64,000 nucleotides of DNA from a phage. A program made the position numbers and the translations under genes. The stretch lies in NCBI GenBank assembly GCA_032691205.1, contig GCA_032691205.1_4541.1, one strand, 5' to 3'. A model generated the notes under the pieces. That model did no database searches and was not told where the DNA came from. It was given only the letters and a program-made list of their open reading frames with translations. Below are positions 28,143-63,252 of the stretch, in pieces; the stretch's first letter is position 1, and every line of letters starts with the position of its first letter.

Positions 28143-28169
28143 AAAAAGAAAGGGCGCTCGGTGCGCCCC
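28143..28169 (-). terminator. rho-independent terminator (minus strand)
   Basis: gggcgctcggtgcgccc hairpin; U-rich tract on minus strand. Confidence 0.6.
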
Positions 28170-28184
28170 TTGTTTTGTTGTCGA

Positions 28185-28604
28185 TTATAACGCTTCATAG
28201 ATTGAGTAGATCCGGTTTGCCAGGTCATTACGAAAGCGGAATTTTTCATCACGTTTAATCATCAGATCCTTAAAACCGTATTCTTTCAATGCTTCATTAA
28301 CTTTATGGCGGCAAACGTTCATATTATCCTGCGCGTCACCAATAAACTTATTACTGTGATGCATTGCTTTGATCTCTTCCTCTAATACCAGGGCAACTAC
28401 ACGGATCGGATCAAGCTGATATGCGGTAACATCCATGCGGCATTGTAAACGGCTTTTAACATCGTTTACCGGATACACTGCAACCTCTTCCCCGTCAACG
28501 TTCACGATAACCAATTTACCATCAATTTCGAAGCCTTTGGCGGCGCTACCGTGACAAAAAGCGTTATCGAAGGAGTAAGCTGGATTATTTGATTTAATGT
28601 TCAT
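28185..28604 (-). CDS. hypothetical protein (139 aa)
   Basis: ORF track; RBS AAGGA. Confidence 0.6.
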   Translation of the reverse strand: MNIKSNNPAYSFDNAFCHGSAAKGFEIDGKLVIVNVDGEEVAVYPVNDVKSRLQCRMDVTAYQLDPIRVVALVLEEEIKAMHHSNKFIGDAQDNMNVCRHKVNEALKEYGFKDLMIKRDEKFRFRNDLANRIYSIYEAL

Positions 28605-28639
28605 GGTGTTGTCCTTTGTTTCGTTTCGTTGTTTGCTGC

Positions 28640-28672
28640 CAGTGAGTTAAATATAATATAACGCCGATCCCC
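28640..28672 (-). promoter_or_regulatory. promoter with -35 inside a hairpin (TTGACA ... TATTAT)
   Basis: Minus-strand read cccctaTTGACAgggg...TATTAT upstream of 28185-28604. Confidence 0.45.
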
Positions 28673-28715
28673 TGTCAATAGGGGATAGCGCATTATTTAC
28701 ATTTCTTTACGTTAA

Positions 28716-28732
28716 AGGGCGCTTAGTGCGCC
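28716..28732 (-). terminator. GC hairpin downstream of 28746 gene (possible terminator)
   Basis: gggcgcttagtgcgccc. Confidence 0.4.
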
Positions 28733-28745
28733 CCCTTGTATAATC

Positions 28746-29114
28746 TTACTTTGTGCGGTTGTGAACGTTATCGCGTTCAACCATCAGGGCAAGGCGGATC
28801 AGTTGATCAGTTGTATCGCGTAAATTGTCGGGCCATGTTTTACTGTTCCAGCTATCCAGGTTTGATTGTATATAGGTTTCAATGGCTTGATCCATACTAT
28901 CAAACAAGTTTTCCTCCAAGCTCTCGGCTGTTTCACACTGGAAAGCATTAGCGACACTGTTAATCAATAAGCAAGCCAGTAAATCAGCATTACGCCAATT
29001 TTTACGGATAGTTTCATCTGTCAGATAACAAACGAGATTAACCTTTGCGCCAGTGGTTGACGTTGCGATCACTTCTTGTGCTTTTTCAAGTGCTTTAATT
29101 GCTGATTTGCTCAT
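28746..29114 (-). CDS. hypothetical protein (122 aa)
   Basis: Track ORF trimmed to ATG 29114 (RBS AGAGGA) so that it begins downstream of the promoter cassette. Confidence 0.55.
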   Translation of the reverse strand: MSKSAIKALEKAQEVIATSTTGAKVNLVCYLTDETIRKNWRNADLLACLLINSVANAFQCETAESLEENLFDSMDQAIETYIQSNLDSWNSKTWPDNLRDTTDQLIRLALMVERDNVHNRTK

Positions 29115-29131
29115 TTTATTTTCCTCTTTGT

Positions 29132-29192
29132 GGGCTTGCTGTATTGCTCGCCCTACGTGATAAATAATAATGTAAGCGTGATCCGGTGTCAA
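29132..29192 (-). promoter_or_regulatory. PeSL-like cassette (degenerate hairpin + TTGACA promoter)
   Basis: -35 tgtcaa at 29187-29192 (plus-strand spelling); gccctacgtg box. Confidence 0.45.
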
Positions 29193-29321
29193 TAGGTAGG
29201 ATTGTAAAGATTTGATAGTTTATCTCTTTGATGTTTTGTTGTTTGATAGGTATTAGCTATCGATATATAGCGGGATCTTCCGGTGATTATCTTCCCCTGC
29301 TCCCAGGTGCCGCCCGTTCAA

Positions 29322-29355
29322 TAAGTATAACAAAAAACAGGACAAAAACAAGCCC
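29322..29355 (-). terminator. rho-independent terminator (minus strand)
   Basis: aacaggg...ccctgtt hairpin; T-rich after it on minus strand. Confidence 0.45.
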
Positions 29356-29367
29356 TGTTTATTTATC

Positions 29368-29502
29368 TTAAAACCAGGTGCCAACCGTTTCCAATAGGTC
29401 GCTGACTACTAGGACAACATTGATCAGCACATGTTCAACCATGAAGGGGATAAGCGCCAGCGTTGCTACTACGATCCCCATTGTGATGATTACCTTTCTC
29501 AT
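29368..29502 (-). CDS. small membrane peptide (44 aa), not in ORF track
   Basis: Own translation MRKVIITMGIVVATLALIPF...; ATGA overlap with upstream gene. Confidence 0.4.
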   Translation of the reverse strand: MRKVIITMGIVVATLALIPFMVEHVLINVVLVVSDLLETVGTWF

Positions 29503-29789
29503 TGTTGGCGGTTTACGTAAGCTTTACCGTTTACGGTCATCGGTATGGCCTCAAGGTCTGGATCTCCCTTAAGGTCGCGTGCAAGCTCACCGCAGCGGGT
29601 ACCCTCGAATCCGTAGTACTCTGTTGTGCCGTCCTGGAAAGTTTTAGCGGCAAGGCATAGGCGATAATTAACGCCGATCCGGTTTATTGCGTTGATATCG
29701 GTTAGCGCGATGGATTCTGGCAACTCATTAGCCAGTACAGGCGCGTTAATACCAACAACCAGGGCAACTACTGCGATCATCTTTTTCAT
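29499..29789 (-). CDS. small secreted protein with signal peptide (96 aa)
   Basis: N-terminus MKKMIAVVALVVGINAPVLA. Confidence 0.55.
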   Translation of the reverse strand: MKKMIAVVALVVGINAPVLANELPESIALTDINAINRIGVNYRLCLAAKTFQDGTTEYYGFEGTRCGELARDLKGDPDLEAIPMTVNGKAYVNRQQ

Positions 29790-29843
29790 GCGTCTATCCT
29801 CTTCCTATTGCGTTTAATGGGGTGTTACCGCCCCGCTTATGGT

Positions 29844-30080
29844 TTATTGATTGATGTTATGATGAAAGTTATTTTCTTCAATAGCTTTTAAAATAAAAGC
29901 CGTGATCGCTTTCGTGTCTACTTGTTCGAACGTATCAGAATAAGCCCAATAATAATCATCCCCTACTTTCGGCGGGTAAACCTGGACAAGGAGATCGCCA
30001 CCTGGTTGATCTATAAGCTCAACATGCAAGCCGGATGATTCAGCGGTTTTAACGGCGTTTAATACTGTTGCAATACTCAT
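29844..30080 (-). CDS. hypothetical protein (78 aa)
   Basis: ORF track; GC hairpin in 5' leader. Confidence 0.55.
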   Translation of the reverse strand: MSIATVLNAVKTAESSGLHVELIDQPGGDLLVQVYPPKVGDDYYWAYSDTFEQVDTKAITAFILKAIEENNFHHNINQ

Positions 30081-30124
30081 AATCTTTTCCTTTCTGATGT
30101 GGGGCGTTGCCGCCCCTTTGTTGA

Positions 30125-30424
30125 TTAGATCGCTGTTTCCAGTAGTTCGGCTAACGTCTTACCGCCTGATAGTTGGTCTAACGTTTGCTCTTCTGGCAAG
30201 AAATTAGCTGATATTAAACCAACTTGATTTCCTTTGTGCCAGTTAGCCTGGCGGATGATTCCATCCTTTAAAGATTTTACCGCCATTGTGCAACCGTCGC
30301 CAAATGATTCATTTTTATGGTCCATCACTTCATAAGCGCCCAGTTTGCTGCTGTTAGGCACCATTAACGCGAACACATCACCAACAACCAGTTTTTCTAC
30401 GGTAACAATAGCGATAGTTTCCAT
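30125..30424 (-). CDS. hypothetical protein (99 aa)
   Basis: ORF track; RBS GAGGAAAG. Confidence 0.55.
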   Translation of the reverse strand: METIAIVTVEKLVVGDVFALMVPNSSKLGAYEVMDHKNESFGDGCTMAVKSLKDGIIRQANWHKGNQVGLISANFLPEEQTLDQLSGGKTLAELLETAI

Positions 30425-30442
30425 TTTACTTTCCTCATTATC

Positions 30443-30498
30443 GGCGGCACCATTGCCGCCCTACGTGGTAAATATTAGCACACTGCCGATCTGTGTCA
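30443..30498 (-). promoter_or_regulatory. PeSL-like cassette: TTGACA N17 TAATAT promoter + stem-loop ggcggcaccattgccgcc
   Basis: Hairpin 30443-30460; -35 at 30493-30498. Confidence 0.6.
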
Positions 30499-30505
30499 AT
30501 ACTTT

Positions 30506-30892
30506 TTATTCAATATAAATCAAATTATCTTCACCAATGTAAGCCGACACGTTCGGCATAAACTTAGCTGCATTTGTTAGGCGGTTGGCTGTGTTAGTGG
30601 TGTATATTTCAGGGCGATCCCAAAAGCCTACGCCGTGACTGTTACGGGTAAAATGTAAATCATTCCCGATCTGGTTGGCTGTTGCGCCGTCGCTCATTGC
30701 CTCAGAGATAGCGGCAAGATTAGCATTAATAAAGGCTGTTACATCCTGGGCGATCCGTTCGTCCGCGCTAGGAGAAAAATCATAATCAGTCATGTCATCT
30801 ATAAAATTACCTTCATGATCCCTTGCGGATTCAGCAAAAATAAAGGCTTCTTTATAACCGTTGATGATTTCAATAATGATTTCTGTTTTCAT
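30506..30892 (-). CDS. hypothetical protein (128 aa)
   Basis: ORF track. Confidence 0.6.
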   Translation of the reverse strand: MKTEIIIEIINGYKEAFIFAESARDHEGNFIDDMTDYDFSPSADERIAQDVTAFINANLAAISEAMSDGATANQIGNDLHFTRNSHGVGFWDRPEIYTTNTANRLTNAAKFMPNVSAYIGEDNLIYIE

Positions 30893-31104
30893 GCTGTACG
30901 CTCGACAATAATAATAGTTTGCGGGATCTCATTTTCTACTACTAACAAGGCTTTTTTCTGCGTAATAGATATTTTAACACGTTGTAACGTGGCGGTAAAG
31001 TCTTTCATCTCATTATGCGCGGATTTAGTGCAATGCCAGATCTCAGGCTTACCTATTTGCAAGCCGCGTAAAAATTCTGTTTTACCTGTCTTATTCGTGA
31101 TCAT
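30889..31104 (-). CDS. hypothetical protein (71 aa)
   Basis: Track ORF (TTG start) trimmed to ATG 31104 after AAGGTG. Confidence 0.5.
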   Translation of the reverse strand: MITNKTGKTEFLRGLQIGKPEIWHCTKSAHNEMKDFTATLQRVKISITQKKALLVVENEIPQTIIIVERTA

Positions 31105-31114
31105 TTGATTCACC

Positions 31115-31219
31115 TTAACCAATACCGTGGGAAGATAGGATCATATTAGCCATAGTTGCAACCAATCCAACCGATAACGCCAGGCCAACTATTACAACCG
31201 TGAAAATTTTCTCTAACAT
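31115..31219 (-). CDS. small hydrophobic peptide (34 aa), not in ORF track
   Basis: Own translation MLEKIFTVVIVGLALSVGLVATMANMILSSHGIG. Confidence 0.35.
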   Translation of the reverse strand: MLEKIFTVVIVGLALSVGLVATMANMILSSHGIG

Positions 31220-31237
31220 GATTCTACCCTCATTAAT

Positions 31238-31299
31238 GGGCGTTGCCTTATTGCCCCGCCCTACGAAATACATTCTATCAGATAACAAATTATCGTCAA
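31238..31299 (-). promoter_or_regulatory. PeSL-like cassette (variant hairpin gggcgttgcc..gccccgccc)
   Basis: -35 cgtcaa at 31294-31299. Confidence 0.5.
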
Positions 31300-31442
31300 G
31301 ATTTATTTTTTACTTCCCAAACGGAAAATTCGCTGCCTGTTGGGATCATCTTTTTAATCTTGTTTGCTGCCGCTACCAGGTCAACGGCTTGCACTGTAAT
31401 AATATAACCAATTGTCGAGGCTGTTGCGTTGAAAGTTTTCAT
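31296..31442 (-). CDS. small protein (48 aa), not in ORF track
   Basis: Own translation MKTFNATASTIGYIITVQAVDL...; stop lies within the downstream -35. Confidence 0.4.
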   Translation of the reverse strand: MKTFNATASTIGYIITVQAVDLVAAANKIKKMIPTGSEFSVWEVKNKS

Positions 31443-31486
31443 TATATTATCCTTTAATACAGGCGGGATTAATCCCGCCTTATTAA

Positions 31487-31657
31487 TTACTCTTCATCGT
31501 CGCCGTTATAGTATTCAATGCCGTTTTCATCGGTTACAGTGATGTTAACGCCACCGATAGCAACACGATCACGGGCAAACGTCATAGCTTCATTTAAATC
31601 TTCAGACCAAAAAATATTGTGACCTTTGCGCGATACATAAAACATAGTCGGGATCAT
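31487..31657 (-). CDS. hypothetical protein (56 aa)
   Basis: Track ORF trimmed to ATG 31657 because the cassette hairpin lies inside the track ORF. Confidence 0.45.
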   Translation of the reverse strand: MIPTMFYVSRKGHNIFWSEDLNEAMTFARDRVAIGGVNITVTDENGIEYYNGDDEE

Positions 31658-31680
31658 GATTTGTTTCTCTTCTGTTGTGA

Positions 31681-31741
31681 GCGGTGGACCATTCCGCCGC
31701 CCTATGTGGTAAACTTTACTACGTTGTTTGCGTGCTGTCAA
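31681..31741 (-). promoter_or_regulatory. PeSL-like cassette (hairpin gcggtggaccattccgccgc)
   Basis: -35 tgtcaa at 31736-31741. Confidence 0.55.
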
Positions 31742-31742
31742 A

Positions 31743-32078
31743 TTATTTTTTAATGTTTTGCCCTACAAAATTAATCATTTCCTTAAGCTGTCTCTCTGTC
31801 ATGATCGTACCTGGTAACTCTTCTTTAATTTCTTCCGGTAAATAAATATTACCGCGCCAGGTTAACAAACAACCGTTTTGATCTTCGCAGATAGAATAGG
31901 AAAACATCCACTCGCAATCATTTTCAAGCTCCCAAAAACACAAAAAGTCTTCTTTCCCTAAGTTTTCAACGGTTAAACATAATCCGCGACGTGCTGCATA
32001 ATTAGTTAGGCTTTTTGTGATTTTCATGATTTTTCTCTCTTCTTGTGAGCGGCACCATTGCCGCCCTACAAGATACAT
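31743..32078 (-). CDS. hypothetical protein (111 aa)
   Basis: ORF track. Confidence 0.55.
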   Translation of the reverse strand: MYLVGRQWCRSQEERKIMKITKSLTNYAARRGLCLTVENLGKEDFLCFWELENDCEWMFSYSICEDQNGCLLTWRGNIYLPEEIKEELPGTIMTERQLKEMINFVGQNIKK

Positions 32079-32104
32079 ATTACCAGACTAAGCCGACTTG
32101 TCAA
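32049..32104 (-). promoter_or_regulatory. PeSL-like cassette (hairpin gcggcaccattgccgcc)
   Basis: -35 tgtcaa at 32099-32104. Confidence 0.55.
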
Positions 32105-32105
32105 A

Positions 32106-32216
32106 CTATTTTTTCTTTTTCTTTGCTTCCAACCGTCTAAGGTTACGGCTTGACTTATTGCGCAAGGCGCTTAGATCGTCGTACCCTTTCCATGCTTGCA
32201 TATCTTTCGGATTCAT
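32106..32216 (-). CDS. small basic protein (36 aa), not in ORF track
   Basis: Own translation MNPKDMQAWKGYDDLSALRNKSSRNLRRLEAKKKKK; RBS AAGGGG. Confidence 0.35.
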   Translation of the reverse strand: MNPKDMQAWKGYDDLSALRNKSSRNLRRLEAKKKKK

Positions 32217-32225
32217 GTTATCCCC

Positions 32226-32387
32226 TTACTTGTTAGCCGGATTATATGCCAGGACCGCGCCGCTTGCTTTCACGCTTTCCGCTTCATAGTTGCGCAGATC
32301 GTTTTCTGTAAGGTTGAGCGCGATCACTTCCTCGATCTCAACGTCAGCGGCAAGGGCGATCTCTTTGATAATGTCTGTTGTTTTCAT
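32226..32387 (-). CDS. small protein (53 aa), not in ORF track
   Basis: Own translation MKTTDIIKEIALAADVEIEEVIALNL... Confidence 0.4.
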   Translation of the reverse strand: MKTTDIIKEIALAADVEIEEVIALNLTENDLRNYEAESVKASGAVLAYNPANK

Positions 32388-32397
32388 AGTACGCACC

Positions 32398-32517
32398 TTA
32401 TAAGATGATTGATAAGATAGTGATAACGAAAGCGATTATACTGATGGCAAATGTCATCTTTTTACCTTCGGATACTGCCGGATTCTCTACCGTGTATTCT
32501 ACTGTGTACTTGCTCAT
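32398..32517 (-). CDS. small membrane peptide (39 aa), not in ORF track
   Basis: Own translation MSKYTVEYTVENPAVSEGKKMTFAISIIAFVITILSIIL. Confidence 0.4.
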   Translation of the reverse strand: MSKYTVEYTVENPAVSEGKKMTFAISIIAFVITILSIIL

Positions 32518-32537
32518 CGTGTAATCCTCTCGTTTGC

Positions 32538-32597
32538 TTTGGGAACTATTCCCGCCGCCCTATGAATTAAATATACACTATCTCAAAATGATTGCAA
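32538..32597 (-). promoter_or_regulatory. PeSL-like cassette (hairpin gggaactattccc; -35 TTGCAA)
   Basis: -35 at 32592-32597. Confidence 0.5.
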
Positions 32598-32613
32598 GCC
32601 TTTTTCTAAATTT

Positions 32614-32928
32614 TTATGCAGTAAACAAACCATCATTTACAACGGCGGCGATGATCTCCCGCGCCATTGATTCAGGGAAAGGGGCGCTATAGTCCTGGCT
32701 TGTCTCATCGGTATCAGTGATCCAATGATAAGCTAACGAGTAAAAGCCTTTACTAACTGTTTTCAGTGAGATGACGATCACTCGGTCAAGCTTATTGGTG
32801 AATGTTGCCGTTAATGTGTTACCCTCCTGCGTCATGTTGGACAAGTAAGCGGGATCATTAATCAGGGAAAACATTAGCACGGTGTTAGCTTTACTCATGA
32901 TTGCATCCTCAAAGGGGCGCGGCACCAT
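32614..32928 (-). CDS. hypothetical protein (104 aa)
   Basis: ORF track. Confidence 0.55.
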   Translation of the reverse strand: MVPRPFEDAIMSKANTVLMFSLINDPAYLSNMTQEGNTLTATFTNKLDRVIVISLKTVSKGFYSLAYHWITDTDETSQDYSAPFPESMAREIIAAVVNDGLFTA

Positions 32929-32974
32929 TGCCGCCCTACACGATAACTATAACACAATGTAAAACAGGATCAAC
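32917..32974 (-). promoter_or_regulatory. PeSL-like cassette (hairpin gcggcaccattgccgcc; -35 TTGATC)
   Basis: Hairpin about 32919-32935. Confidence 0.45.
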
Positions 32975-33176
32975 CTTTATTTTTCCACGGTGTCAGCTTG
33001 TTAATCATTGGTGATAAATAGCGTTTACCAACGTAAAACAGCACGCCAACTGATGCAACGGCGGCGATCTCATGCATAGCCGACGGGAAACGGGTATCAT
33101 AATAAGATCCAATAATAGCAATAGCGGCAACGGCTGCAACGTCGATAATGATTTTTTCTTGTTTTGCGGTGATCAT
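32970..33176 (-). CDS. small membrane protein (68 aa)
   Basis: Track ORF trimmed to ATG 33176; two hydrophobic segments. Confidence 0.45.
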   Translation of the reverse strand: MITAKQEKIIIDVAAVAAIAIIGSYYDTRFPSAMHEIAAVASVGVLFYVGKRYLSPMINKLTPWKNKG

Positions 33177-33196
33177 AATATTTACCTTTTTGTATG

Positions 33197-33256
33197 GTGG
33201 GGGAACTATTCCCCGCCTGATGTAATACAGTTTAACAGGTCCGGTTATGGTGTCAA
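33197..33256 (-). promoter_or_regulatory. PeSL-like cassette (hairpin gggggaactattcccc)
   Basis: -35 tgtcaa at 33251-33256. Confidence 0.55.
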
Positions 33257-33262
33257 CCACTT

Positions 33263-33448
33263 TTAAAGATATTTTATACTGATAACGTTTTCCGGTTTAA
33301 CCTTGTTGTGATGTGCATCAACATAGATCAAACCATCGTCAGAAAAGCCCAGGATCACGCCCTGCGCAATAAAACCGTATTCGTCACGGTAACGCACGGC
33401 TATTTTTAACGTTGCGTTGTAGGCTGTTTTAAGCTCGCTTAAAGTCAT
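33263..33448 (-). CDS. hypothetical protein (61 aa)
   Basis: ORF track. Confidence 0.5.
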   Translation of the reverse strand: MTLSELKTAYNATLKIAVRYRDEYGFIAQGVILGFSDDGLIYVDAHHNKVKPENVISIKYL

Positions 33449-33465
33449 CTTTGTTTATCCTCTAC

Positions 33466-33496
33466 ATGTAAAAAGAAAGGGCGCTTGGTGCGCCCC
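33466..33496 (-). terminator. rho-independent terminator (minus strand)
   Basis: gggcgcttggtgcgccc hairpin; U tract on minus strand. Confidence 0.6.
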
Positions 33497-33504
33497 TTAT
33501 TATG

Positions 33505-33651
33505 TTAATCCTCTAAATCCATCCAATTATATTTGTCACTCTTCCCGCGCTTTGTTTTATTGCGCTTGTCGCCTTTGCGGATCACTTCCTCGTTCCAGGC
33601 CTTGCGGATCTTGGAAGATTGAATTTTTTCTGCGCGATTAGATGTATTCAT
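33505..33651 (-). CDS. small basic protein (48 aa), not in ORF track
   Basis: Own translation MNTSNRAEKIQSSKIRKAWNEEVIRKGDKRNKTKRGK... Confidence 0.4.
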   Translation of the reverse strand: MNTSNRAEKIQSSKIRKAWNEEVIRKGDKRNKTKRGKSDKYNWMDLED

Positions 33652-33671
33652 TTTGTTTCCTCTTCATATGA

Positions 33672-33724
33672 GCGGCACCATTGCCGCTATATTGTTAATT
33701 TAAGCTGTTTTGTAAAATTGTCAA
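33672..33724 (-). promoter_or_regulatory. PeSL-like cassette (hairpin gcggcaccattgccgc)
   Basis: -35 tgtcaa at 33719-33724. Confidence 0.55.
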
Positions 33725-33730
33725 GGTTTA

Positions 33731-34084
33731 TCATTCATAAGAGCAAGCAAGGATCACGCCTGCAATATAAAGCCAATAATTTTCCCTTTCTCGTTGGATT
33801 TTATCATCGCTGCTATTCTCTTTAATGTATCCCCAGGATGTTAACAAGCGATCAATTTCCCAATATTCGAAAGCGATATTGATATCTGATGGCAAACCTT
33901 GTAACCATGATGCAAGTGCTTTAACAATACTATAATTAAAACGTGATTGGTTATCAGGGTACCAGTACTCGGAATTAAAACGGCGCATCAATTCCGCGAT
34001 CTTCTCTTTTTCGGTTGTAATACCGTAATCATTAAAATCGATAGCGGCAAGTATGTACTCTTTAATTGCATTTTGTGCTTTCAT
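33731..34084 (-). CDS. hypothetical protein (117 aa)
   Basis: ORF track. Confidence 0.55.
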   Translation of the reverse strand: MKAQNAIKEYILAAIDFNDYGITTEKEKIAELMRRFNSEYWYPDNQSRFNYSIVKALASWLQGLPSDINIAFEYWEIDRLLTSWGYIKENSSDDKIQRERENYWLYIAGVILACSYE

Positions 34085-34103
34085 GGTCTTTCTCTCTTTT
34101 TGA

Positions 34104-34160
34104 GCGGGAACTATTCCCGCCCTACGTGTAACAGTTTACTAAAAATTAAATCGGTGTCAA
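34104..34160 (-). promoter_or_regulatory. PeSL-like cassette (hairpin gcgggaactattcccgc)
   Basis: -35 tgtcaa at 34155-34160. Confidence 0.6.
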
Positions 34161-34163
34161 GCT

Positions 34164-34385
34164 TTATTTTGTTACTACCATTTGGTACCCTGTTTCAATG
34201 TTAGTAAATACTGTTATTCCGTCCTGGCGTTCACTCATTAGCATACAAGGCGCTAACATCCTTTCTACTGCCTTGCACTCATTGTAAACGGCGGTTATGT
34301 CTCCTGCGGCCTTGTCTTCTGTGGTGAATGTATCGTTTACGTAAACCTGACCAGCGACAACGGCGACAATAGCGAAAGTGATCAT
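34164..34385 (-). CDS. hypothetical protein (73 aa)
   Basis: ORF track; begins ATGATCACTTT like the next ORF. Confidence 0.5.
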   Translation of the reverse strand: MITFAIVAVVAGQVYVNDTFTTEDKAAGDITAVYNECKAVERMLAPCMLMSERQDGITVFTNIETGYQMVVTK

Positions 34386-34459
34386 GATGTTTCCTTGTTA
34401 GTAGTGGTTTCTCTTCTCTATAGCGCCCATTATAAGGCGCTATAACGAAAAGTCAACGA

Positions 34460-34627
34460 TTATTTTTTAAGGCTTAAAGTACCTAACTTGTCAGCATGAC
34501 GCAGACCAGGGAAGATCCATTTTCCTGATTCATCTTTTACAGGGGCTTTAAGCGTAGCGCCCAGGTTGGCGGCGTTAACTTTACGGGCAACGTTGCGAGC
34601 GGCTTCACGGGTAGTAAAAGTGATCAT
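34460..34627 (-). CDS. small protein (55 aa), not in ORF track
   Basis: Own translation MITFTTREAARNVARKVNAANLGATLKAPVK... Confidence 0.4.
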   Translation of the reverse strand: MITFTTREAARNVARKVNAANLGATLKAPVKDESGKWIFPGLRHADKLGTLSLKK

Positions 34628-34651
34628 GATGTTTTCCTCTTCTCTTTGTTA

Positions 34652-34713
34652 GGCGGTGGACCATTCCGCCGCCTTGATGTAATACAGTTTACTTTATTTT
34701 TGCAGTATTGCAA
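34652..34713 (-). promoter_or_regulatory. PeSL-like cassette (hairpin ggcggtggaccattccgccgcc; -35 TTGCAA)
   Basis: -35 at 34708-34713. Confidence 0.55.
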
Positions 34714-34718
34714 GCGTT

Positions 34719-34931
34719 TTATGAAATAATCGTCAAAGTAAAATTGTAATCACCTGATTGGTACAATACTTTATCACCGAACGTTCCAACACGTTTAACA
34801 TTGCAATATATACCCATAACACTTTTTACATCTTTGATATTCTTCACGCCTGTAATATCTTTATTAAAATGATCGTGATCAGAAAATAAAACTTGACTTG
34901 CATTTTTTAACAGTGTGCGGATATTAGCCAT
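34719..34931 (-). CDS. hypothetical protein (70 aa)
   Basis: ORF track. Confidence 0.5.
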   Translation of the reverse strand: MANIRTLLKNASQVLFSDHDHFNKDITGVKNIKDVKSVMGIYCNVKRVGTFGDKVLYQSGDYNFTLTIIS

Positions 34932-34956
34932 CGTGATAATCTCTCTTCTGTTGTGA

Positions 34957-35012
34957 GCGGCACTATTGCCGCCCTACGTAATACAGTTTACTCTTTTTCT
35001 TTCCCGTGTCAA
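34957..35012 (-). promoter_or_regulatory. PeSL-like cassette (hairpin gcggcactattgccgcc)
   Basis: -35 tgtcaa at 35007-35012. Confidence 0.6.
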
Positions 35013-35021
35013 CAATCTTTT

Positions 35022-35249
35022 TCAGATTAATTCATCCAGGCATAACAGGCGATCAACGTTGAGATCGGTCAGGCTGATGGTTGGCACCTGGTAGGATTCG
35101 ATGTACTCGACGCTTGCATATTCCCCAAAATTAGCAATAGCCCACTTATTCAAGATCTCACATACATCATTAATCTTTTTGTTTGTTACAACTGCAATAA
35201 CCTGGGAAGTGCCAACGGTGCCGGATACGCGAACAATATTGATAGCCAT
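35022..35249 (-). CDS. hypothetical protein (75 aa)
   Basis: ORF track. Confidence 0.5.
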   Translation of the reverse strand: MAINIVRVSGTVGTSQVIAVVTNKKINDVCEILNKWAIANFGEYASVEYIESYQVPTISLTDLNVDRLLCLDELI

Positions 35250-35270
35250 AATCTTTAATCTCTCTGTTGT

Positions 35271-35330
35271 TGGCGGGAAACCACTTCCCGCCCTATGTGA
35301 TACATCTTACACTAATTTTAAACGTTGTCA
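35271..35330 (-). promoter_or_regulatory. PeSL-like cassette (hairpin ggcgggaaaccacttcccgcc)
   Basis: -35 tgtcaa at 35325-35330. Confidence 0.6.
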
Positions 35331-35340
35331 ACTGTTTTTA

Positions 35341-35580
35341 TTACATTCCAACCATCGCGGCGCGGATCGCAGTTTTACTATACTTAAAGCCGTCTGGCGT
35401 TGTAGTGATTCCATCCTGTTTCAAACGGTAGCACATTAAATCAGCCGCCTGATCTTTATTACCGCACTCATTGATCAATCCCAATGCAAACCGATACAAT
35501 CCCTCATCGTTATTAATCCACAGGCTTACATTCCAATGAGTTTTGTTTTTGTGACCGTTGTACATTTTAGATTTAGCCAT
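35341..35580 (-). CDS. hypothetical protein (79 aa)
   Basis: ORF track. Confidence 0.5.
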   Translation of the reverse strand: MAKSKMYNGHKNKTHWNVSLWINNDEGLYRFALGLINECGNKDQAADLMCYRLKQDGITTTPDGFKYSKTAIRAAMVGM

Positions 35581-35604
35581 GATTTTTCTCTCTTTTTCAG
35601 TGAG

Positions 35605-35663
35605 GCGGGAAGTGTTCCCGCTCTCTATGTAATACAGTTTACTCTTTTTATTCGTGCTGTCAA
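35605..35663 (-). promoter_or_regulatory. PeSL-like cassette (hairpin gcgggaagtgttcccgc)
   Basis: -35 tgtcaa at 35658-35663. Confidence 0.6.
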
Positions 35664-35669
35664 TGCTTT

Positions 35670-36023
35670 TTATAAATCTTTTTTACGTTTTACATCGCTT
35701 GCATGACTGTATACAGCGATCCCATTATCACGACAAAAACGGGTAAGGTATGATCCGCGTGAAAACTCTTTCCCTTCCAGGTCAACAACCTTGCTAAATT
35801 CTTCCAGGGCAACGGTATCAAAATGATCACCATAACCATATTGAAACGGCACGTTAACAACTTCAATCAATTTACCGCCGATCTCAACGTCCACGCTTAA
35901 AGAAAAATATGTGTTACCGTAGGACTGTTGAAACCAGCGACGGGCGCTAATGTGAACGGCTTCAATCTCACCAATTTTAAATTGAGTGTTACCCAGGATC
36001 GCAACGTTGATATTTTTAGCCAT
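35670..36023 (-). CDS. hypothetical protein (117 aa)
   Basis: ORF track. Confidence 0.55.
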   Translation of the reverse strand: MAKNINVAILGNTQFKIGEIEAVHISARRWFQQSYGNTYFSLSVDVEIGGKLIEVVNVPFQYGYGDHFDTVALEEFSKVVDLEGKEFSRGSYLTRFCRDNGIAVYSHASDVKRKKDL

Positions 36024-36048
36024 GATTTTTTCTCTCTTTTTGGTTAGT

Positions 36049-36100
36049 GGGAAGTGTTCCCGATAAAAGTTATTATGCTTATACTATCGTTTTTTGTCAA
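36049..36100 (-). promoter_or_regulatory. PeSL-like cassette (short hairpin gggaagtgttccc)
   Basis: -35 tgtcaa at 36095-36100. Confidence 0.5.
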
Positions 36101-36119
36101 TAGTATAAGACTAAAACTT

Positions 36120-36299
36120 TTAACGATAATCGTCGTAGGCTTTATTAACCTGGCGAATATAACATTCGAAAGCGAGATCAATAGAATCATATTCCCGCAC
36201 ATAATCCCCGTAAGAAACTACATACACACCTTTTTGATCCTCAAACGTCATGATGATAGAATCCAGGCCGATGATTTCAGTTTTAGCGATGATAGTCAT
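36120..36299 (-). CDS. small protein (59 aa), not in ORF track
   Basis: Own translation MTIIAKTEIIGLDSIIMTFEDQKGVYVVSYG... Confidence 0.45.
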   Translation of the reverse strand: MTIIAKTEIIGLDSIIMTFEDQKGVYVVSYGDYVREYDSIDLAFECYIRQVNKAYDDYR

Positions 36300-36320
36300 A
36301 ATAATAACCTTTTTATTGTT

Positions 36321-36377
36321 GGCGGCACCATTGCCGCCCTACGTGATAAACTATACCAGAATTTTAAACAGTGTCAA
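36321..36377 (-). promoter_or_regulatory. PeSL-like cassette (hairpin ggcggcaccattgccgcc)
   Basis: -35 tgtcaa at 36372-36377; -10 TATAGT. Confidence 0.6.
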
Positions 36378-36387
36378 ACGTTTTTTC

Positions 36388-36633
36388 TTAGTTTGCGAAA
36401 TATGGCGCGGCGGCTGATGCCGTTAATCTCCAAGTGATTTGGCTATCGATCAAGTATTCTTCATTCTTGATCCGCACGGTATCAATCGAGAAGTTACTGA
36501 AAGGCTTGCTCTTGATTTTACGAACAACCGTTACACGACGGTTATTTTTCATCTCTTTTAACTGAATCCAGGCGTAACCTTTTTCATTGACAAATATTTC
36601 ATTGTGATTGGTGATAGATGATAAGTGTTTCAT
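36388..36633 (-). CDS. hypothetical protein (81 aa)
   Basis: ORF track. Confidence 0.5.
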   Translation of the reverse strand: MKHLSSITNHNEIFVNEKGYAWIQLKEMKNNRRVTVVRKIKSKPFSNFSIDTVRIKNEEYLIDSQITWRLTASAAAPYFAN

Positions 36634-36654
36634 GATTTGTTTCTCTTCTGTTTT

Positions 36655-36714
36655 GAGCGGTGGACCATTCCGCCGCCCTATGTGTTACATCTTACTACTT
36701 TTTTAAACATTGTC
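36655..36714 (-). promoter_or_regulatory. PeSL-like cassette (hairpin gcggtggaccattccgccgc)
   Basis: -35 tgtcaa at 36709-36714. Confidence 0.6.
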
Positions 36715-36724
36715 AAGGATATTT

Positions 36725-37006
36725 TTAACTATATGATCCACATCGTTCGCAGTAGTGATCATCGTCGTCATCTGCTACCTGGCTGATAAAATGATCTACC
36801 TTTGCTTTCAAATTATTATAATTGCTTTCTACTTCCTGTAGTCGTCGTTGGTAGTATTCCAGGGCTTGCACATAGGCCATTTGTTCGGTTTTAGCTTGCA
36901 CAGCTAAATTCATGCCGCGCGTTTCATCGTATAACCAATAACCATCATTACATTCACTAATAGATAGTGTAGGGCTTAGTTTTTCGTGACGGATAACCTT
37001 GCTCAT
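36725..37006 (-). CDS. hypothetical protein (93 aa)
   Basis: ORF track; C-terminal CERCGS. Confidence 0.55.
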   Translation of the reverse strand: MSKVIRHEKLSPTLSISECNDGYWLYDETRGMNLAVQAKTEQMAYVQALEYYQRRLQEVESNYNNLKAKVDHFISQVADDDDDHYCERCGSYS

Positions 37007-37016
37007 GGTGTGCCCC

Positions 37017-37124
37017 TTACTTCAAAATGATTGTTGTGATAACTGCTACGGTGATCCAAAATGGAACGGCTAGAATGATAGCGTTAATCGTTCCAACCGT
37101 CAAACTATTTCCTTTATTAATCAT
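37017..37124 (-). CDS. small membrane peptide (35 aa), not in ORF track
   Basis: Own translation MINKGNSLTVGTINAIILAVPFWITVAVITTIILK; RBS AAGAGG. Confidence 0.4.
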   Translation of the reverse strand: MINKGNSLTVGTINAIILAVPFWITVAVITTIILK

Positions 37125-37153
37125 TGTAAGCCTCTTGCATAATTTCACTATGA

Positions 37154-37210
37154 GCGGCACCATTGCCGCCCTACGTGGTAAATATTATGCCAGTGGCGGC
37201 GATATGTCAA
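37154..37210 (-). promoter_or_regulatory. PeSL-like cassette (hairpin gcggcaccattgccgcc)
   Basis: -35 tgtcaa at 37205-37210 overlaps stop of upstream gene. Confidence 0.6.
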
Positions 37211-37773
37211 AGACTATTTTCAAAGTTTTCTAGTGCGATCCTTTTTTCTTCCTCTGTCGGCTGATAATCAGGAAAAGCATCAACACACAACAACGGCGGG
37301 ATCTCTTCGTACTCTTCCTCTTCCGTTGTCTCCTCGTCTTCCTCCTGGGCTATGGCTGCAATTTTGGCTAATTTTCTTTCAGCTTGAATCAATTTACCAT
37401 CAAGTACGTTTTTTGCCATGTTGTAAGCGGTCCAGGTGATGCGCTTACTTTCCAGGGCCTGATCGAGCGCCGCTATCTTGCTGGGGTATTCATCCAGGAC
37501 ACGAAAAGCCGGATCAACTTTGTACAAAGGATTATCTTTCGCGCCGTCGCTCGCATCTTCCGCACTGGATAAATCAGCGTTACCATTTGCCAGCCAGCCA
37601 GGGCGCACATAACGCGCTTTTACGTTGCCGTTACTACGTGCTAATCTGTTACCTATTTGCTCACCGCTATATCCCGTGGATTCATCGATAAGATGATCGG
37701 GAATGATGCGCGGATCATCTGCTTCATGTTTTACCCAAGACTGGATCACATATTCGCGGCCCATATTAACCAC
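37207..37773 (-). CDS. hypothetical protein (188 aa), acidic C-terminus
   Basis: ORF track. Confidence 0.6.
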   Translation of the reverse strand: MVNMGREYVIQSWVKHEADDPRIIPDHLIDESTGYSGEQIGNRLARSNGNVKARYVRPGWLANGNADLSSAEDASDGAKDNPLYKVDPAFRVLDEYPSKIAALDQALESKRITWTAYNMAKNVLDGKLIQAERKLAKIAAIAQEEDEETTEEEEYEEIPPLLCVDAFPDYQPTEEEKRIALENFENSL

Positions 37774-38023
37774 CTTTTTTCAACAATTGGCATACTTTAA
37801 AAAGACTTGCTGAATCCTTGCAAGGGTAGAAAGATGTACGATAATCACGTACGCCAACCTTGCGGATCTCGATGTTCTCGCATGTTGTTTGATCAAAGAT
37901 ATTTATTTCATCACGCCCCCTTATATAAACATAGTGGGGATGTATTAACGCATATTTTGCTAATCTGTAAAAAGCGTTATCTTTGAACGCGATCACGTGA
38001 CCTTTTAATTTGATGTAAAACAT
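37766..38023 (-). CDS. hypothetical protein (85 aa)
   Basis: ORF track. Confidence 0.5.
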   Translation of the reverse strand: MFYIKLKGHVIAFKDNAFYRLAKYALIHPHYVYIRGRDEINIFDQTTCENIEIRKVGVRDYRTSFYPCKDSASLFKVCQLLKKGG

Positions 38024-38041
38024 TCTACCACCTTACAAATA

Positions 38042-38096
38042 GCGGGAACTATTCCCGCTTTATGTAACATATTAACAAATTATTCGTTAATGTCAA
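38042..38096 (-). promoter_or_regulatory. PeSL-like cassette (hairpin gcgggaactattcccgc)
   Basis: -35 tgtcaa at 38091-38096. Confidence 0.6.
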
Positions 38097-38099
38097 GCC

Positions 38100-38372
38100 T
38101 TAAAGCAAAAACGCTACATCTTGCGCTTTTAGTGTAGTATCAACCATTTTCGGGCTTTTATAATCAACAAAGCGCGCGGTTTTTTCAATAGCGAAACCGA
38201 GATAATCTTGCTTGTTGAAATTACATTCTTTCTTAAATGTTTCCCGTGCAATGGCAATCGCTGCGTCCAGGGATAAACGCCCGTCAATATTGATATTAGC
38301 GAAAGATCCGCCACCGCTCATAGGTTTACCAGTTGTGCCAGCTACGATCATTGTTGCGCTATATGATGCCAT
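38100..38372 (-). CDS. hypothetical protein (90 aa)
   Basis: ORF track. Confidence 0.5.
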   Translation of the reverse strand: MASYSATMIVAGTTGKPMSGGGSFANINIDGRLSLDAAIAIARETFKKECNFNKQDYLGFAIEKTARFVDYKSPKMVDTTLKAQDVAFLL

Positions 38373-38407
38373 GATGATAATCTCTCTTCTGTTACGAGCG
38401 GGAAACC

Positions 38408-38466
38408 ACTTCCCGCCCTATGTGATACATCTTATCAGGTTGTTGTTTGTTGTCAATACTTTTTAT
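38408..38466 (-). promoter_or_regulatory. PeSL-like cassette (hairpin gcgggaaaccacttcccgc)
   Basis: -35 tgtcaa at 38461-38466 overlaps stop of upstream gene. Confidence 0.6.
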
Positions 38467-38660
38467 TCTATCCCTGCAATTTGATTAACGCGCTTGCATT
38501 TTGTAGCGTGCTGGTCTTCTGTAATGACTCCCATTTCTAACAGGGAATCAATGAAAGATAAAACCGTTTCATGATCATCCTGGGGATGACTGAACTCAGT
38601 AAAACCGTTTACTATTACGTTGATTTGTCCAGCTTTCGCCACAATGTGCAATGTTGCCAT
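38463..38660 (-). CDS. hypothetical protein (65 aa)
   Basis: Track ORF trimmed to ATG 38660 (RBS GGAG) because the cassette hairpin lies inside the track ORF. Confidence 0.45.
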   Translation of the reverse strand: MATLHIVAKAGQINVIVNGFTEFSHPQDDHETVLSFIDSLLEMGVITEDQHATKCKRVNQIAGIE

Positions 38661-38681
38661 GATCTTAACTCCAAATAGTGA

Positions 38682-38738
38682 GCGGCACCATTGCCGCGCT
38701 ACGTGGTAAATATTATGCCGCCACCTGGCGAACGTCAA
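38682..38738 (-). promoter_or_regulatory. PeSL-like cassette (hairpin gcggcaccattgccgc; TTGACG N17 TAATAT)
   Basis: -35 at 38733-38738. Confidence 0.6.
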
Positions 38739-38847
38739 CCACTTTTTCAATCTTTTTTATTTTCTTTTTGCTTGCTATATATAAAGGAAAGGGTTATCAT
38801 CTTTCTACCGCGCCAACCAGGGCGCACAACAAAGAAAGGGCGACACC

Positions 38848-39114
38848 ATGACAAATACTACATTACATCTTATGCACTCATTGGGCTGGCAAGGCGGCAC
38901 GGTGCACCAGGTAGCAAGCGCAACGGGCTTAAAGGTTGAAACCGTTCTCAACCTATCAGATTATAAGGTCGAGGATAGTTATCAATTACAAAGTTACACG
39001 GGCGGTTTTACCTGGGCGCGTGAAGGTGGGAAAGAAAGCAATATACCACATTGGGGAAAAGGTGATATTCATTTTTGGCTAGGTGTCCTGACCTGGCAAG
39101 AAAACAAAAAATAA
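38848..39114 (+). CDS. hypothetical protein (88 aa)
   Basis: ORF track; RBS AAGGG; isolated plus-strand ORF between minus blocks. Confidence 0.4.
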   Translation: MTNTTLHLMHSLGWQGGTVHQVASATGLKVETVLNLSDYKVEDSYQLQSYTGGFTWAREGGKESNIPHWGKGDIHFWLGVLTWQENKK

Positions 39115-39145: not shown

Positions 39146-39151
39146 GTTTTA

Positions 39152-39370
39152 CATACAGAAGAGGAAGCGCCACCCCACGGCGTAAAGGCGGGGCTAACAT
39201 ACCAGGGGCACTGGTTGGAAGGTTGATCGCCGGTAGGCTGGGCGCTATATATTTGTAAAGAAATGTAAAGATAAAATAATCGCTTGCTTTCCTGGCTGGA
39301 TCTGTTATTCTTATTACATGGCGAGGGGACACGGGAGCGCGAGACAAACACCGCCCCTGCGCGTCATTCT
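39152..39370 (+). ncRNA. candidate structured small RNA (GC-rich island downstream of promoter)
   Basis: GC-rich self-complementary segments (gcgccacc..ggcgc; gaggggac..cgcccctgcgcg) with no convincing ORF. Confidence 0.3.
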
Positions 39371-39394
39371 CTAAATGAGAATGATTATCATTTA
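39365..39394. promoter_or_regulatory. palindrome CATTCTC-taaa-TGAGAATG plus Fur-box-like AATGATTATCATT
   Basis: 16 of 19 positions match the Fur-box consensus as I recall it. Confidence 0.3.
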
Positions 39395-39434
39395 CCTTAT
39401 CAAATAAGAATAAATCTCATTTATAAACTTAAAT

Positions 39435-39478
39435 GCGAATCATTATCATTTGCATTTCCATATGAGAACTCTTCTCAT
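39435..39478. promoter_or_regulatory. Fur-box-like site and ATGAGAA-ctc-TTCTCAT palindrome
   Basis: gcgaatcattatcatttgc ... atgagaactcttctcat. Confidence 0.3.
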
Positions 39479-39501
39479 TCTCACCTGCATAAAAATTTTT
39501 G

Positions 39502-39544
39502 TAAACTTTAAATTTTGCTTTTGTACTTTCATTTTTGTAAAAGC
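39502..39544. repeat. direct repeat copy 1 (about 43 bp)
   Basis: taaactttaaattttgcttttgtactttcatttttgtaaaagc. Confidence 0.55.
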
Positions 39545-39639
39545 AAAAAAACTTTAAATACTGTGGGCGCGCAAAATTTTTAAAATTTTCCTTGACTTTT
39601 GAGTTTTGTTTTGTATCTAACATTTTAAGATAATTTTCC

Positions 39640-39679
39640 TAAACTTTAAATTTTGGTTTTCAACTTTCACTTTTGTAAA
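39640..39679. repeat. direct repeat copy 2
   Basis: taaactttaaattttggttttcaactttcacttttgtaaa. Confidence 0.55.
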
Positions 39680-39921
39680 TTCTTAAAAAGTTTAAATAAT
39701 TTGAGGGATTTTTGAGATAATGGATAGTGGGAATTTGATATAACCTTTAATCTTATTAGTAGACCTTCAGGAACCCACCTAGATCGAATCCTAGTGATGC
39801 AAACTGAAAAAGATAAGTGTTTGTATAGGACAAAATAACAGGCTCTCTACGGTGCTGTAGGAGCCTTATTTCTGTGCTACAAAGTGACACCTTTGTTCTA
39901 AAAATGAAAAAAGTTAAAATA

Positions 39922-62952: not shown

Positions 62953-63174
62953 ATGGGTGTTTTTGCAGGTATTGTTGCAGTGGTAAGCTTTTTTGTTATT
63001 GCTTTTATGCTTAGTTTGATTCCAGCTTGGTTACTGTTGCTGGCTTACAACTATGTTGCTGAAGTTATGGGTCATGCAGATATCACTGTCCCAGTAACCT
63101 TCTGGACCGTGGTTTGTGTTTCGTTTATTTTGGCGGTATTACGAGGAATCTTTTCCTCTCATTCAACAAAATAA
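62953..63174 (+). CDS. small membrane protein (73 aa, two TM)
   Basis: ORF track; RBS AAGAGGAG. Confidence 0.55.
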   Translation: MGVFAGIVAVVSFFVIAFMLSLIPAWLLLLAYNYVAEVMGHADITVPVTFWTVVCVSFILAVLRGIFSSHSTK

Positions 63175-63177
63175 GTG

Positions 63178-63236
63178 TTGACATAGTTCTTAAAAAGAGT
63201 AAGATATATCACATGAAGCGGGGAATAGTTCCCCGC
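63178..63236 (+). promoter_or_regulatory. PeSL-like cassette on plus strand: TTGACA N16 TAAGAT + stem-loop gcggggaatagttccccgc
   Basis: Hairpin 63218-63236 is the same family as the minus-strand cassettes (reverse complement of gcgggaactattcccgc type). Confidence 0.55.
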
Positions 63237-63252
63237 AAAGAGAGGAGAAAAG

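Follow-up and report, generated by a model that had tools for sequence, protein, structure and literature searches.

Composite elements that join a sigma-70-like early promoter to a GC stem-loop, the promoter-early-stem-loops (PeSLs), have been described in the hyperplastic regions of T4-like phages (Arbiol et al. 2010, PMC2839356; Comeau et al. 2014). First reported in RB49, they are known in RB49/phi1, PST/T4 and nt-1/KVP40. The position of their stem-loop is variable, most often between the -35 and -10 hexamers or over the -10. In a lacZ assay, a PeSL stem-loop of RB49 lowered expression to the same extent as the terminator rrnB T1 (PMC2839356). Recombination between PeSLs gives indels and mini-circles, and the RB49 crossovers were mapped to the stem-loop. 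In this work we describe a PeSL-like module present in 21 copies on the minus strand (29192-38738) of a 64,000-nucleotide stretch of phage DNA (contig GCA_032691205.1_4541.1; the whole stretch is called the window), for which an original prediction made from the same letters had claimed about 20 promoter-plus-stem-loop cassettes.

The modules resemble PeSLs in gathering an AT-rich tract, a sigma-70-like early promoter, a stem-loop with G-rich followed by C-rich arm, a Shine-Dalgarno (SD) sequence and a start codon in one repeated intergenic unit, in clustering among small ORFan genes, and in containing the ends of the indels and replacements that separate close relatives. They differ from PeSLs in lineage, here Stephanstirmvirinae and Vequintavirinae, in the lack of a U-rich sequence after the stem, and in the place of the hairpin, which is fixed here after the predicted transcription start and lies in or around the promoter in RB49. 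Inspection of the RB49 region located its hairpins (GGGGATC...GATCCCC) in the spacer or over the -10, ORF207 being the only gene with one after the -10. A covariance model built from the 21 window copies scored the RB49 PeSLs at no more than 18.8 bits (E >= 0.04), compared with 41-87 bits for the copies themselves, hence we see no sequence homology between the two beyond the promoter. Judged by these comparisons, the modules are a PeSL-like variant in a new lineage, sharing the design idea and the role in recombination and not belonging to the same sequence family. From the PeSL assignment of the original prediction, composite promoter/stem-loop units at sites of cassette difference were retained; a T4-type phage, the hairpin position of RB49 PeSLs and sequence homology to them were not supported, and the terminator role of PeSL stem-loops is unlikely here.

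Phapecoctavirus genomes of ~150 kb (Ro121c4YLVW, REC, tuntematon, ESCO13, ZCKP1 and others) match the region at 92-96% identity. By these matches the source is an E. coli Phapecoctavirus, phAPEC8-like, of the Stephanstirmvirinae, and not a T4-type phage; with Phapecoctavirus as the closest records, the block does not represent a hyperplastic region of a T4-like (Straboviridae) genome. In the GenBank records of the relatives all genes of the block are listed as 'hypothetical protein', and promoters and stem-loops are unannotated there. Some of the matching records go under the names of Campylobacter phages (B15 and others), Acinetobacter phage ABPW7 and Klebsiella phage ZCKP1; over this region they share 95-96% identity with E. 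coli phapecoctaviruses, and their host labels may deserve checking.

Arrays of repeated sigma-70-like early promoters have also been reported for Certrevirus (CB7, CR3, CR8, CR9), rV5 and PAK_P1-like phages. These share with the present block strong host-type promoters, an UP-like A-tract and a region of short hypothetical open reading frames (ORFs), but the reports concern the promoter only, and their accessible texts are silent on a hairpin after the -10 and on cassette shuffling. In the accessible literature, which did not cover the PVP-SE1, phAPEC8 and phi92 genome papers, so that an earlier mention is possible, the module is undescribed for rV5-, phi92- and phAPEC8-like phages.

The repeated intergenic module

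The 21 copies were obtained by direct reading and by a promoter-plus-hairpin scan of both strands of the whole window. The covariance model, a check proposed along with the original prediction, gave 22 window matches at E<1e-4, namely the same 21 and one on the plus strand (63168-63251), and a direct-repeat search recovered the modules as repeat families, with two pairs 91% identical over 75 nt and 47 nt. Each intergenic unit is ~90 nt long, is followed by one or two tiny genes, and is ordered as A-rich tract, TTGACA, 16-17 nt, TAnnnT, 8 nt (typically GTATCACR), TAGGGCGG, GC hairpin, purine-rich leader (exemplified by TCACAACAGAAGAGAGA), SD and ATG. TAGGGCGG runs directly into the hairpin; together with the preceding purine it forms (R)TAGGGCGG, whose distance from the -10 is 8 nt in most copies.

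The modules and the two strong promoters without a downstream hairpin (34456 and 28678) are listed below, with promoters written as -35, spacer length and -10. The upper coordinate of each minus-strand module, i.e. of all 21, is the first base of the -35 hexamer, and the rows of these 21 are based on the promoter-plus-hairpin scan, folding and a covariance-model match.

38661-38738, minus: module 1, TTGACG-17-TAATAT, hairpin 38697-38682 (GCGGCA/ATGG/TGCCGC), leader to ATG 38660
38718-38731, minus: spacer of module 1, extra 5-bp hairpin between -35 and -10
38373-38456, minus: module 2, TTGACA-16-TAAGAT, hairpin 38418-38396, ATG 38372
38024-38096, minus: module 3, TTGACA-16-TAATAT, hairpin 38059-38041, ATG 38023
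37125-37210, minus: module 4, TTGACA-17-TAATAT, hairpin 37171-37152, ATG 37124 (35-aa hydrophobic peptide), upstream stop codon overlapping the -35
36634-36716, minus: module 5, TTGACA-16-TAAGAT, hairpin 36678-36655 (GGGCGGCGGA/ATGG/TCCACCGCTC), ATG 36633, 75 nt 91% identical to module 18
36300-36377, minus: module 6, TTGACA-16-TATAGT, hairpin 36338-36321, ATG 36299
36024-36100, minus: module 7, TTGACA-17-CATAAT, short hairpin 36061-36049 (GGGAA/CAC/TTCCC), ATG 36023
35581-35663, minus: module 8, TTGACA-16-TAAACT, hairpin 35625-35602, ATG 35580
35250-35331, minus: module 9, TTGACA-16-TAAGAT, hairpin 35292-35272, ATG 35249
34932-35012, minus: module 10, TTGACA-16-TAAACT, hairpin 34974-34955, ATG 34931, 5' half present in the chimeric module of nieznany
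34628-34713, minus: module 11, TTGCAA-16-TAAACT, hairpin 34674-34651, ATG 34627, 3' half present in the chimeric module of nieznany
34386-34456, minus: promoter without 5' leader hairpin, TTGACT-16-TATAAT, 9-bp inverted repeat 34445-34418 with the -10 in its loop
34085-34160, minus: module 12, TTGACA-16-TAAACT, hairpin 34122-34102, ATG 34084
33652-33724, minus: module 13, TTGACA-16-TAAATT, hairpin 33688-33671, ATG 33651 (T7 gene 1.1-like, 48 aa)
33177-33256, minus: module 14, TTGACA-16-TAAACT, hairpin 33217-33196, ATG 33176
32899-32973, minus: module 15, TTGATC-16-TATAGT, hairpin 32934-32919, ATG 32898
32518-32597, minus: module 16, TTGCAA-16-TATATT, hairpin 32553-32541, ATG 32517
32028-32104, minus: module 17, TTGACA-16-TAATAT, hairpin 32066-32047, ATG 32027, used as blastn query
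31658-31741, minus: module 18, TTGACA-17-TAAAGT, hairpin 31702-31679, ATG 31657
31220-31299, minus: module 19, TTGACG-16-TAGAAT, hairpin 31261-31238, ATG 31219
30425-30499, minus: module 20, TTGACA-16-TAATAT, hairpin 30460-30443, ATG 30424, site of the extra cassette of ZCKP1
29115-29192, minus: module 21, TTGACA-17-TATTAT, hairpin 29156-29130, ATG 29114, site of the extra cassette of ESCO13
28605-28678, minus: promoter without hairpin, TTGACA-17-TATATT, ATG 28604
63178-63253, plus: isolated module, TTGACA-16-TAAGAT, hairpin 63218-63236 (GCGGGGAA/tag/TTCCCCGC), before a TerC-like membrane protein gene, ATG 63254
28185-38660, minus: ~34 small ORFs of 34-185 aa, transcribed from the modules

These promoters depart from chance: the gene strand of the block holds 20 sigma-70 sites with at least 10 of 12 consensus positions, compared with 2.3 +/- 1.5 in 200 dinucleotide shuffles, of which none exceeded 8; a scan with a promoter tool agreed. 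Of the 23 promoters, 18 have an exact TTGACA; the spacer is 16-17 nt, the -10 has the form TAnnnT and an A-tract lies upstream. The motif TAGGGCGG occurs 13 times, always on the minus strand and between 30456 and 38420, with 0.47 occurrences expected. As had been predicted, the -35 abuts or overlaps the preceding gene, since the upstream stop codon lies 1-10 nt before it in most units and overlaps TTGACA in three, and GC content is raised, albeit slightly (0.40-0.44 in the block, ~0.34-0.40 alongside).

Beyond the window, a 95%-identical relative has two modules (the TerC one and one other) in the 100 kb that lie largely outside it, and thus the block holds nearly all modules. The copy preceding the gene of a TerC-like integral membrane protein (63178-63253, plus) means that the module is not restricted to tiny ORFan genes. 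Using the 75-nt module 17 as query, blastn matched 144 phage GenBank records. A scan of IMG/VR for the promoter plus TAGGGCGG returned 63 loci, with full modules solely on 97-153-kb contigs of the same phage group; many single promoter + TAGGGCGG matches on ~40-kb contigs were rejected as not being modules.

Contrary to the claim that every gene is preceded by the module, 11 of the ~34 ORFs of the block lack one of their own and are coupled to the preceding gene or placed after terminators; the claimed small size was borne out, with the range corrected from 34-190 to 34-185 aa. All 34 products match PHROG families of unknown function. In Pfam the matches are limited to the T7 gene 1.1 family (PF08200, E 5e-13; g16, 33651-33505, minus), DUF7249 (E 8e-12; g10, 35580-35341, minus), DUF1033 and a weak Gp58, and comparison of four proteins with the sequences of solved structures gave no relative. 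Five tiny ORFs of 34-68 aa on the minus strand (37124-37017, 33176-32970, 32517-32398, 31219-31115 and 29502-29368) resemble, when read by eye, single hydrophobic helices, and may therefore be small membrane peptides. The label 'accessory' for the genes of the block is supported by the variation of gene content among relatives.

The predicted leader hairpin and termination signals

The transcription start was predicted from sigma-70 geometry as the purine 8 nt after the -10; the base at this place is G in nine, A in nine and T in three of the 21 copies. In all 21 the hairpin, with its G-rich 5' arm and C-rich 3' arm, begins 9-13 nt after the -10, which for a start so predicted puts the beginning of the stem at +1 to +5 of the RNA and its end by ~+28. 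The first 36 nt of the predicted RNAs of the 21 modules fold with a minimum free energy (MFE) of -5.5 to -15.8 kcal/mol (mean z relative to shuffles, -3.3), and the leaders of the two hairpin-less promoters fold to 0 kcal/mol. In several copies the first two nucleotides pair with CUCAC after the stem, so that the 5' end is nearly blunt. Leader length is 38-51 nt; in the MFE and centroid folds of 72-82-nt leaders the hairpin is kept and the SD/ribosome site is unpaired. The commonest hairpin has the tetraloop AUGG and hence an AUG, which at 37163 and 32928 (minus) is in frame with the real downstream start, so that mechanical ORF lists over-extend these two genes.

An Rfam 15 scan of 27-41 kb at E <= 1, lambdoid nut/boxB included, gave just a chance miRNA match (E 0.095) far below the gathering score.

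Stabilising stem-loops at the very 5' end of the message are exemplified by the E. coli ompA and papA mRNAs and by the leader of phage T7 gene 10. The predicted leaders described here are like them in having a stable hairpin a few nucleotides from the predicted 5' end and upstream of an open ribosome site; they differ in that a single genome has the element on ~20 promoters, where it serves as a recombination unit too, and in that its 5' position is a predicted one. RppH and RNase E need single-stranded 5' ends, which is why 5' structures stabilise mRNAs (reviewed in PMC3997798).

On balance we think it probable, with modest confidence, that the modules are early expression cassettes whose hairpin belongs to the 5' leader and most likely stabilises or insulates the mRNA, and that the ~90-nt repeats are substrates of recombination. 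The block would be the main early-gene region of a phAPEC8-like phage, built from standard expression cassettes, each unit supplying an A-rich UP-like tract and a near-consensus sigma-70 promoter that unmodified host polymerase could read. Transcription would start ~8 nt after the -10, and the unstructured, purine-rich leader would carry the ribosome site. By keeping the 5' end base-paired, the hairpin may hinder RppH and 5'-end-dependent RNase E attack, and it may insulate the ribosome site from any upstream sequence; under this proposal unrelated small genes would all share strong early expression. Where transcription reads through from upstream, the hairpin could also act as a 3' barrier for the upstream cistron. 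The protective role is suggested by the fixed place at the predicted 5' end and the open ribosome site, taken with the RppH/RNase E rule (PMC3997798).

The hairpins could also be terminators or attenuators of the PeSL type, stopping or damping upstream transcription so that each gene is driven by its own promoter alone. The following two features of the block bear on this reading:

33476-33498, minus: canonical intrinsic terminator inside the array, hairpin and T-run
29335-29360, minus: canonical intrinsic terminator

The effect of the RB49 stem-loop on lacZ, equal to that of rrnB T1 (PMC2839356), speaks for termination, and the module hairpins match the true terminators of the block in GC-richness and in the G-then-C pattern of their arms. 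Intercistronic hairpins without a promoter also exist in the block, and RB49-like geometry is seen in two local exceptions, the inverted repeat 34418-34445 around the -10 of promoter 34456 and the spacer hairpin of module 1 (38738). Yet none of the 21 module hairpins has a T-run after the stem on the gene strand, where purine-rich sequence such as TCACAACAGAAGAGAGA follows instead, while terminators 33498, 29360 and 28171 of the same block do have one. The T-runs at 33498 and 29360 show that the phage uses the classical terminator design when needed. Moreover, a hairpin 1-5 nt from the start of its own transcript would also act on the cassette's own RNA. Given the missing T-runs, a terminator role of the module hairpins is unlikely.

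Six hairpins of the block are of the terminator type (stop codon, GC hairpin, no promoter directly upstream), and of these two, 33498 and 29360, have a T-run. One terminator-like unit, AAGGGGCGCACyrAGCGCCCTTT, recurs three times on the minus strand, with a T-run at 28149-28171 and 33476-33498 and without it at 28714-28736, so that the terminators of the block look modular as well. The intercistronic GC hairpins at 31461-31480, 30101-30116 and 29818-29835 are arranged as stop codon, hairpin, SD and ATG with no promoter; their T-run is on the opposite, gene-free strand and none is present on the gene strand.

Variation of stems and cassettes among relatives

For the covariation analysis the structure was supplied by hand and the modules were re-aligned with the covariance model, as RNAalifold on a plain MAFFT alignment of the 21 modules recovered three pairs, the hairpins of different length being misaligned. 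In 111-117 distinct modules from the window and its relatives, pairing at the eight modelled positions amounts to 80-84%, with 73-78% in shuffles. Covariation scores 0.20-0.21, compared with 0.10 in shuffles (0 of 500 reach it) and 0.005-0.10 in slid controls; this alignment was fitted to the covariance model itself, the fixed-column signal comes mostly from one base pair (CG 56, GC 35, GU 20), and many copies are recent duplicates whose counts are not independent. Taken by itself, covariation is thus moderate evidence for an RNA structure. A fixed-column count of G-U versus A-C is confounded by register shifts, and therefore sense and antisense folding were compared instead; stability favours the gene-strand RNA weakly (52 vs 27, p 0.035).

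Stronger evidence than these statistics is provided by independent folding of 71 distinct hairpin sequences among the relatives, nearly all of which are stable, together with the unrelated stems in other genera. In Justusliebigvirus alia the stems are GGCGGGAAA/TTTCCCGCC and GGGGC/GCCCC; in Vequintavirus FV3 they are GGGGAG/CTCCCC and GGGGCAA/TTGCCCC, and in Seunavirus FENT2 GGCGGGG/CCCCGCC. In these three phages the stem begins 6-14 nt, mostly 9-11 nt, after the -10. The frequency of hairpins at promoter-like sites was compared with a background obtained by sampling random positions, as follows:

alia: 13 of 39 promoter-like sites with hairpin, 2% of random positions, Fisher p 8e-13
FV3: 5 of 29 promoter-like sites with hairpin, 2.2% of random positions, Fisher p 5e-4
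FENT2: 3 of 18 promoter-like sites with hairpin, 2% of random positions, Fisher p 6e-3

By this comparison the architecture of promoter plus hairpin, with stems unrelated in sequence, is common to four genera in two subfamilies (Stephanstirmvirinae and Vequintavirinae). Its persistence there is hard to reconcile with a functionless passenger hairpin that was spread by duplication of whole promoter units, and the same is true of hairpin stability well beyond that of shuffles and of a GC-rich transcript start, an odd neutral feature for very strong promoters. Many copies are near-identical and most stem positions never vary, as duplication would have it, but we hold the passenger reading to be highly improbable.

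Conservation of sequence raises another question, namely whether a phage or host protein binds the hairpin together with (R)UAGGGCGG as a recognition tag through which early transcripts would be shut off on time, processed, protected or controlled in their translation, much as T4 RegA/RegB act on early mRNAs. TAGGGCGG is conserved far beyond the needs of pairing, as judged by its 13 exact copies and by per-position counts, and the module accompanies nearly every early promoter and is almost absent from the rest of the genome. Against this, loops and inner stems vary freely between copies, the flanking motif is not kept in Vequintavirus and Seunavirus, and neither a candidate RNA-binding protein nor an Rfam family was identified. 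The lack of loop conservation argues in particular against a loop-specific binding protein, and the tag appears to us quite unlikely.

Relatives differ cassette by cassette in gene content, so the block is not uniformly conserved and the unit-by-unit variation for which a comparison had been suggested is present. Alignment with five phapecoctaviruses gave 54 breakpoints, of which 27 are located in modules (18% of the block), a count inflated by breakpoints shared by descent. Identities form a mosaic gene by gene. The pair g6 + g7 is found, among the relatives compared, only in phiWec179, at 99-100% identity, with the adjoining g3 and g4 at 48-71% to the same phage; g23 + g24 are absent from two relatives and g25 from three.

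All three junctions checked at the sequence level lie in modules. Phage nieznany is without the g12 cassette and has one chimeric module, consisting of the -35 and spacer of module 10 and the hairpin and leader of module 11, joined in the 15-nt stretch common to both, AGTAAACTGTATTAC. The extra cassette of ZCKP1, at module 20, is located between two modules sharing GTAGGGCGGCAATGGTGCCGC, and that of ESCO13, at module 21, between two modules sharing CGTAGGGCG; in both cases the flanking modules bear GTAGGGCG(G/A). The modules are thus places of exchange. As direct repeats that have long identical stretches in common, the units recombine with one another, and whole cassettes are thereby deleted, inserted or replaced; the gene-by-gene mosaic of the relatives is the outcome.

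The exchange could also reflect an element acting at the DNA level, the inverted repeat being a cruciform, a recombination hotspot or an operator just past the start, with the RNA hairpin a by-product. The mapping of the RB49 crossovers to the stem-loop, the junctions of the extra cassettes at GTAGGGCG(G/A) and the weak asymmetry of the sense-versus-antisense test would suit such an element. However, the clean crossover of nieznany took place within the -10 and the initial transcribed stretch, outside the hairpin, stems of 6-10 bp extrude poorly, and every copy is oriented with transcription and keeps a constant distance from the -10. Hairpin arms differ between copies with complementarity kept, which rules out one sequence-specific operator protein, and the operator reading was set aside on this ground. 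We give the DNA-level element very little credence.

Integron cassette arrays are similar to the block in their small and mostly unknown ORFs, their repeated hairpin-forming unit (attC) and their cassette-wise variation. They differ in that each unit here has its own promoter and in that the junctions fit homologous exchange rather than attC x attI recombination. With homologous junctions and no integrase gene annotated in the records of relatives examined, an integron-like reading was rejected.

Weight of the proposed role and wider context

Several points weigh against the hairpin as a stabiliser/insulator at the 5' end, besides the limits on the covariation, strand and breakpoint counts given above. 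The position of the hairpin in the RNA follows from sigma-70 geometry alone, and in most copies 3-4 nt are unpaired at the predicted 5' end. For a 5' stem-loop, 3-4 unpaired nucleotides are borderline for full protection. Promoter 34456, with an inverted repeat around its -10, and the three promoter-less intercistronic hairpins hint at a role in read-through RNA or in DNA which needs no 5' end. Finally, the conservation of TAGGGCGG and the constant G-rich 5' and C-rich 3' arms go beyond a purely structural role and are not explained by the proposal.

Phages are known to interfere with RNA turnover: T4 Srd stimulates RNase E on host mRNA, T7 gp0.7 and phiKZ Dip inhibit RNA degradation (PMC4980113), and rV5 gp11 has been called a probable Srd homologue (PMC3606486). 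A bolder thought, which we would rate as unlikely, is that the hairpin with (R)UAGGGCGG marks early RNAs as 'self', so that a phage or hijacked factor spares them during destruction of host mRNA or switches them off together at the early-to-middle transition, or that the units make excised mini-circles of promoter and gene which move accessory genes between co-infecting phages of the two subfamilies.

In the neighbourhood of the array the following features were noted; no tRNA or tmRNA genes were found in the 64-kb window.

38848-39114, plus: 88-aa ORF adjoining module 1 on its upstream side and pointing away from the array, hypothetical in relatives
39150-39920: non-coding stretch of ~800 bp beside the array with iteron-like repeats
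39372-39479: ~22-nt unit repeated three times at 29-nt spacing
39494 and 39632: 72-nt unit present twice

The iteron-like stretch may serve as a replication origin or in regulation; its counterpart in phage alia has no annotation other than 'repeat_region'.

The results extend the principle of promoter-plus-stem-loop cassettes beyond T4-type phages to the relatives of phAPEC8, phi92 and rV5, a group of therapeutic-candidate coliphages in which the hairpin is, by the predicted start, a fixed part of the 5' leader and not of the promoter. This group may offer a cleaner natural system for testing what such hairpins do, be it mRNA protection, insulation, termination or recognition. The module gives a rule for annotating early promoters and the tiny genes overlooked by gene callers, as well as an explicit map of the sites of accessory-gene exchange in these phages, and its units are natural, compact and, by their promoters, strong expression cassettes that are potentially reusable in engineering. 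For the biology of this widely isolated phage group, it means that a conserved and so far unannotated RNA/regulatory module is present ~20 times per genome.

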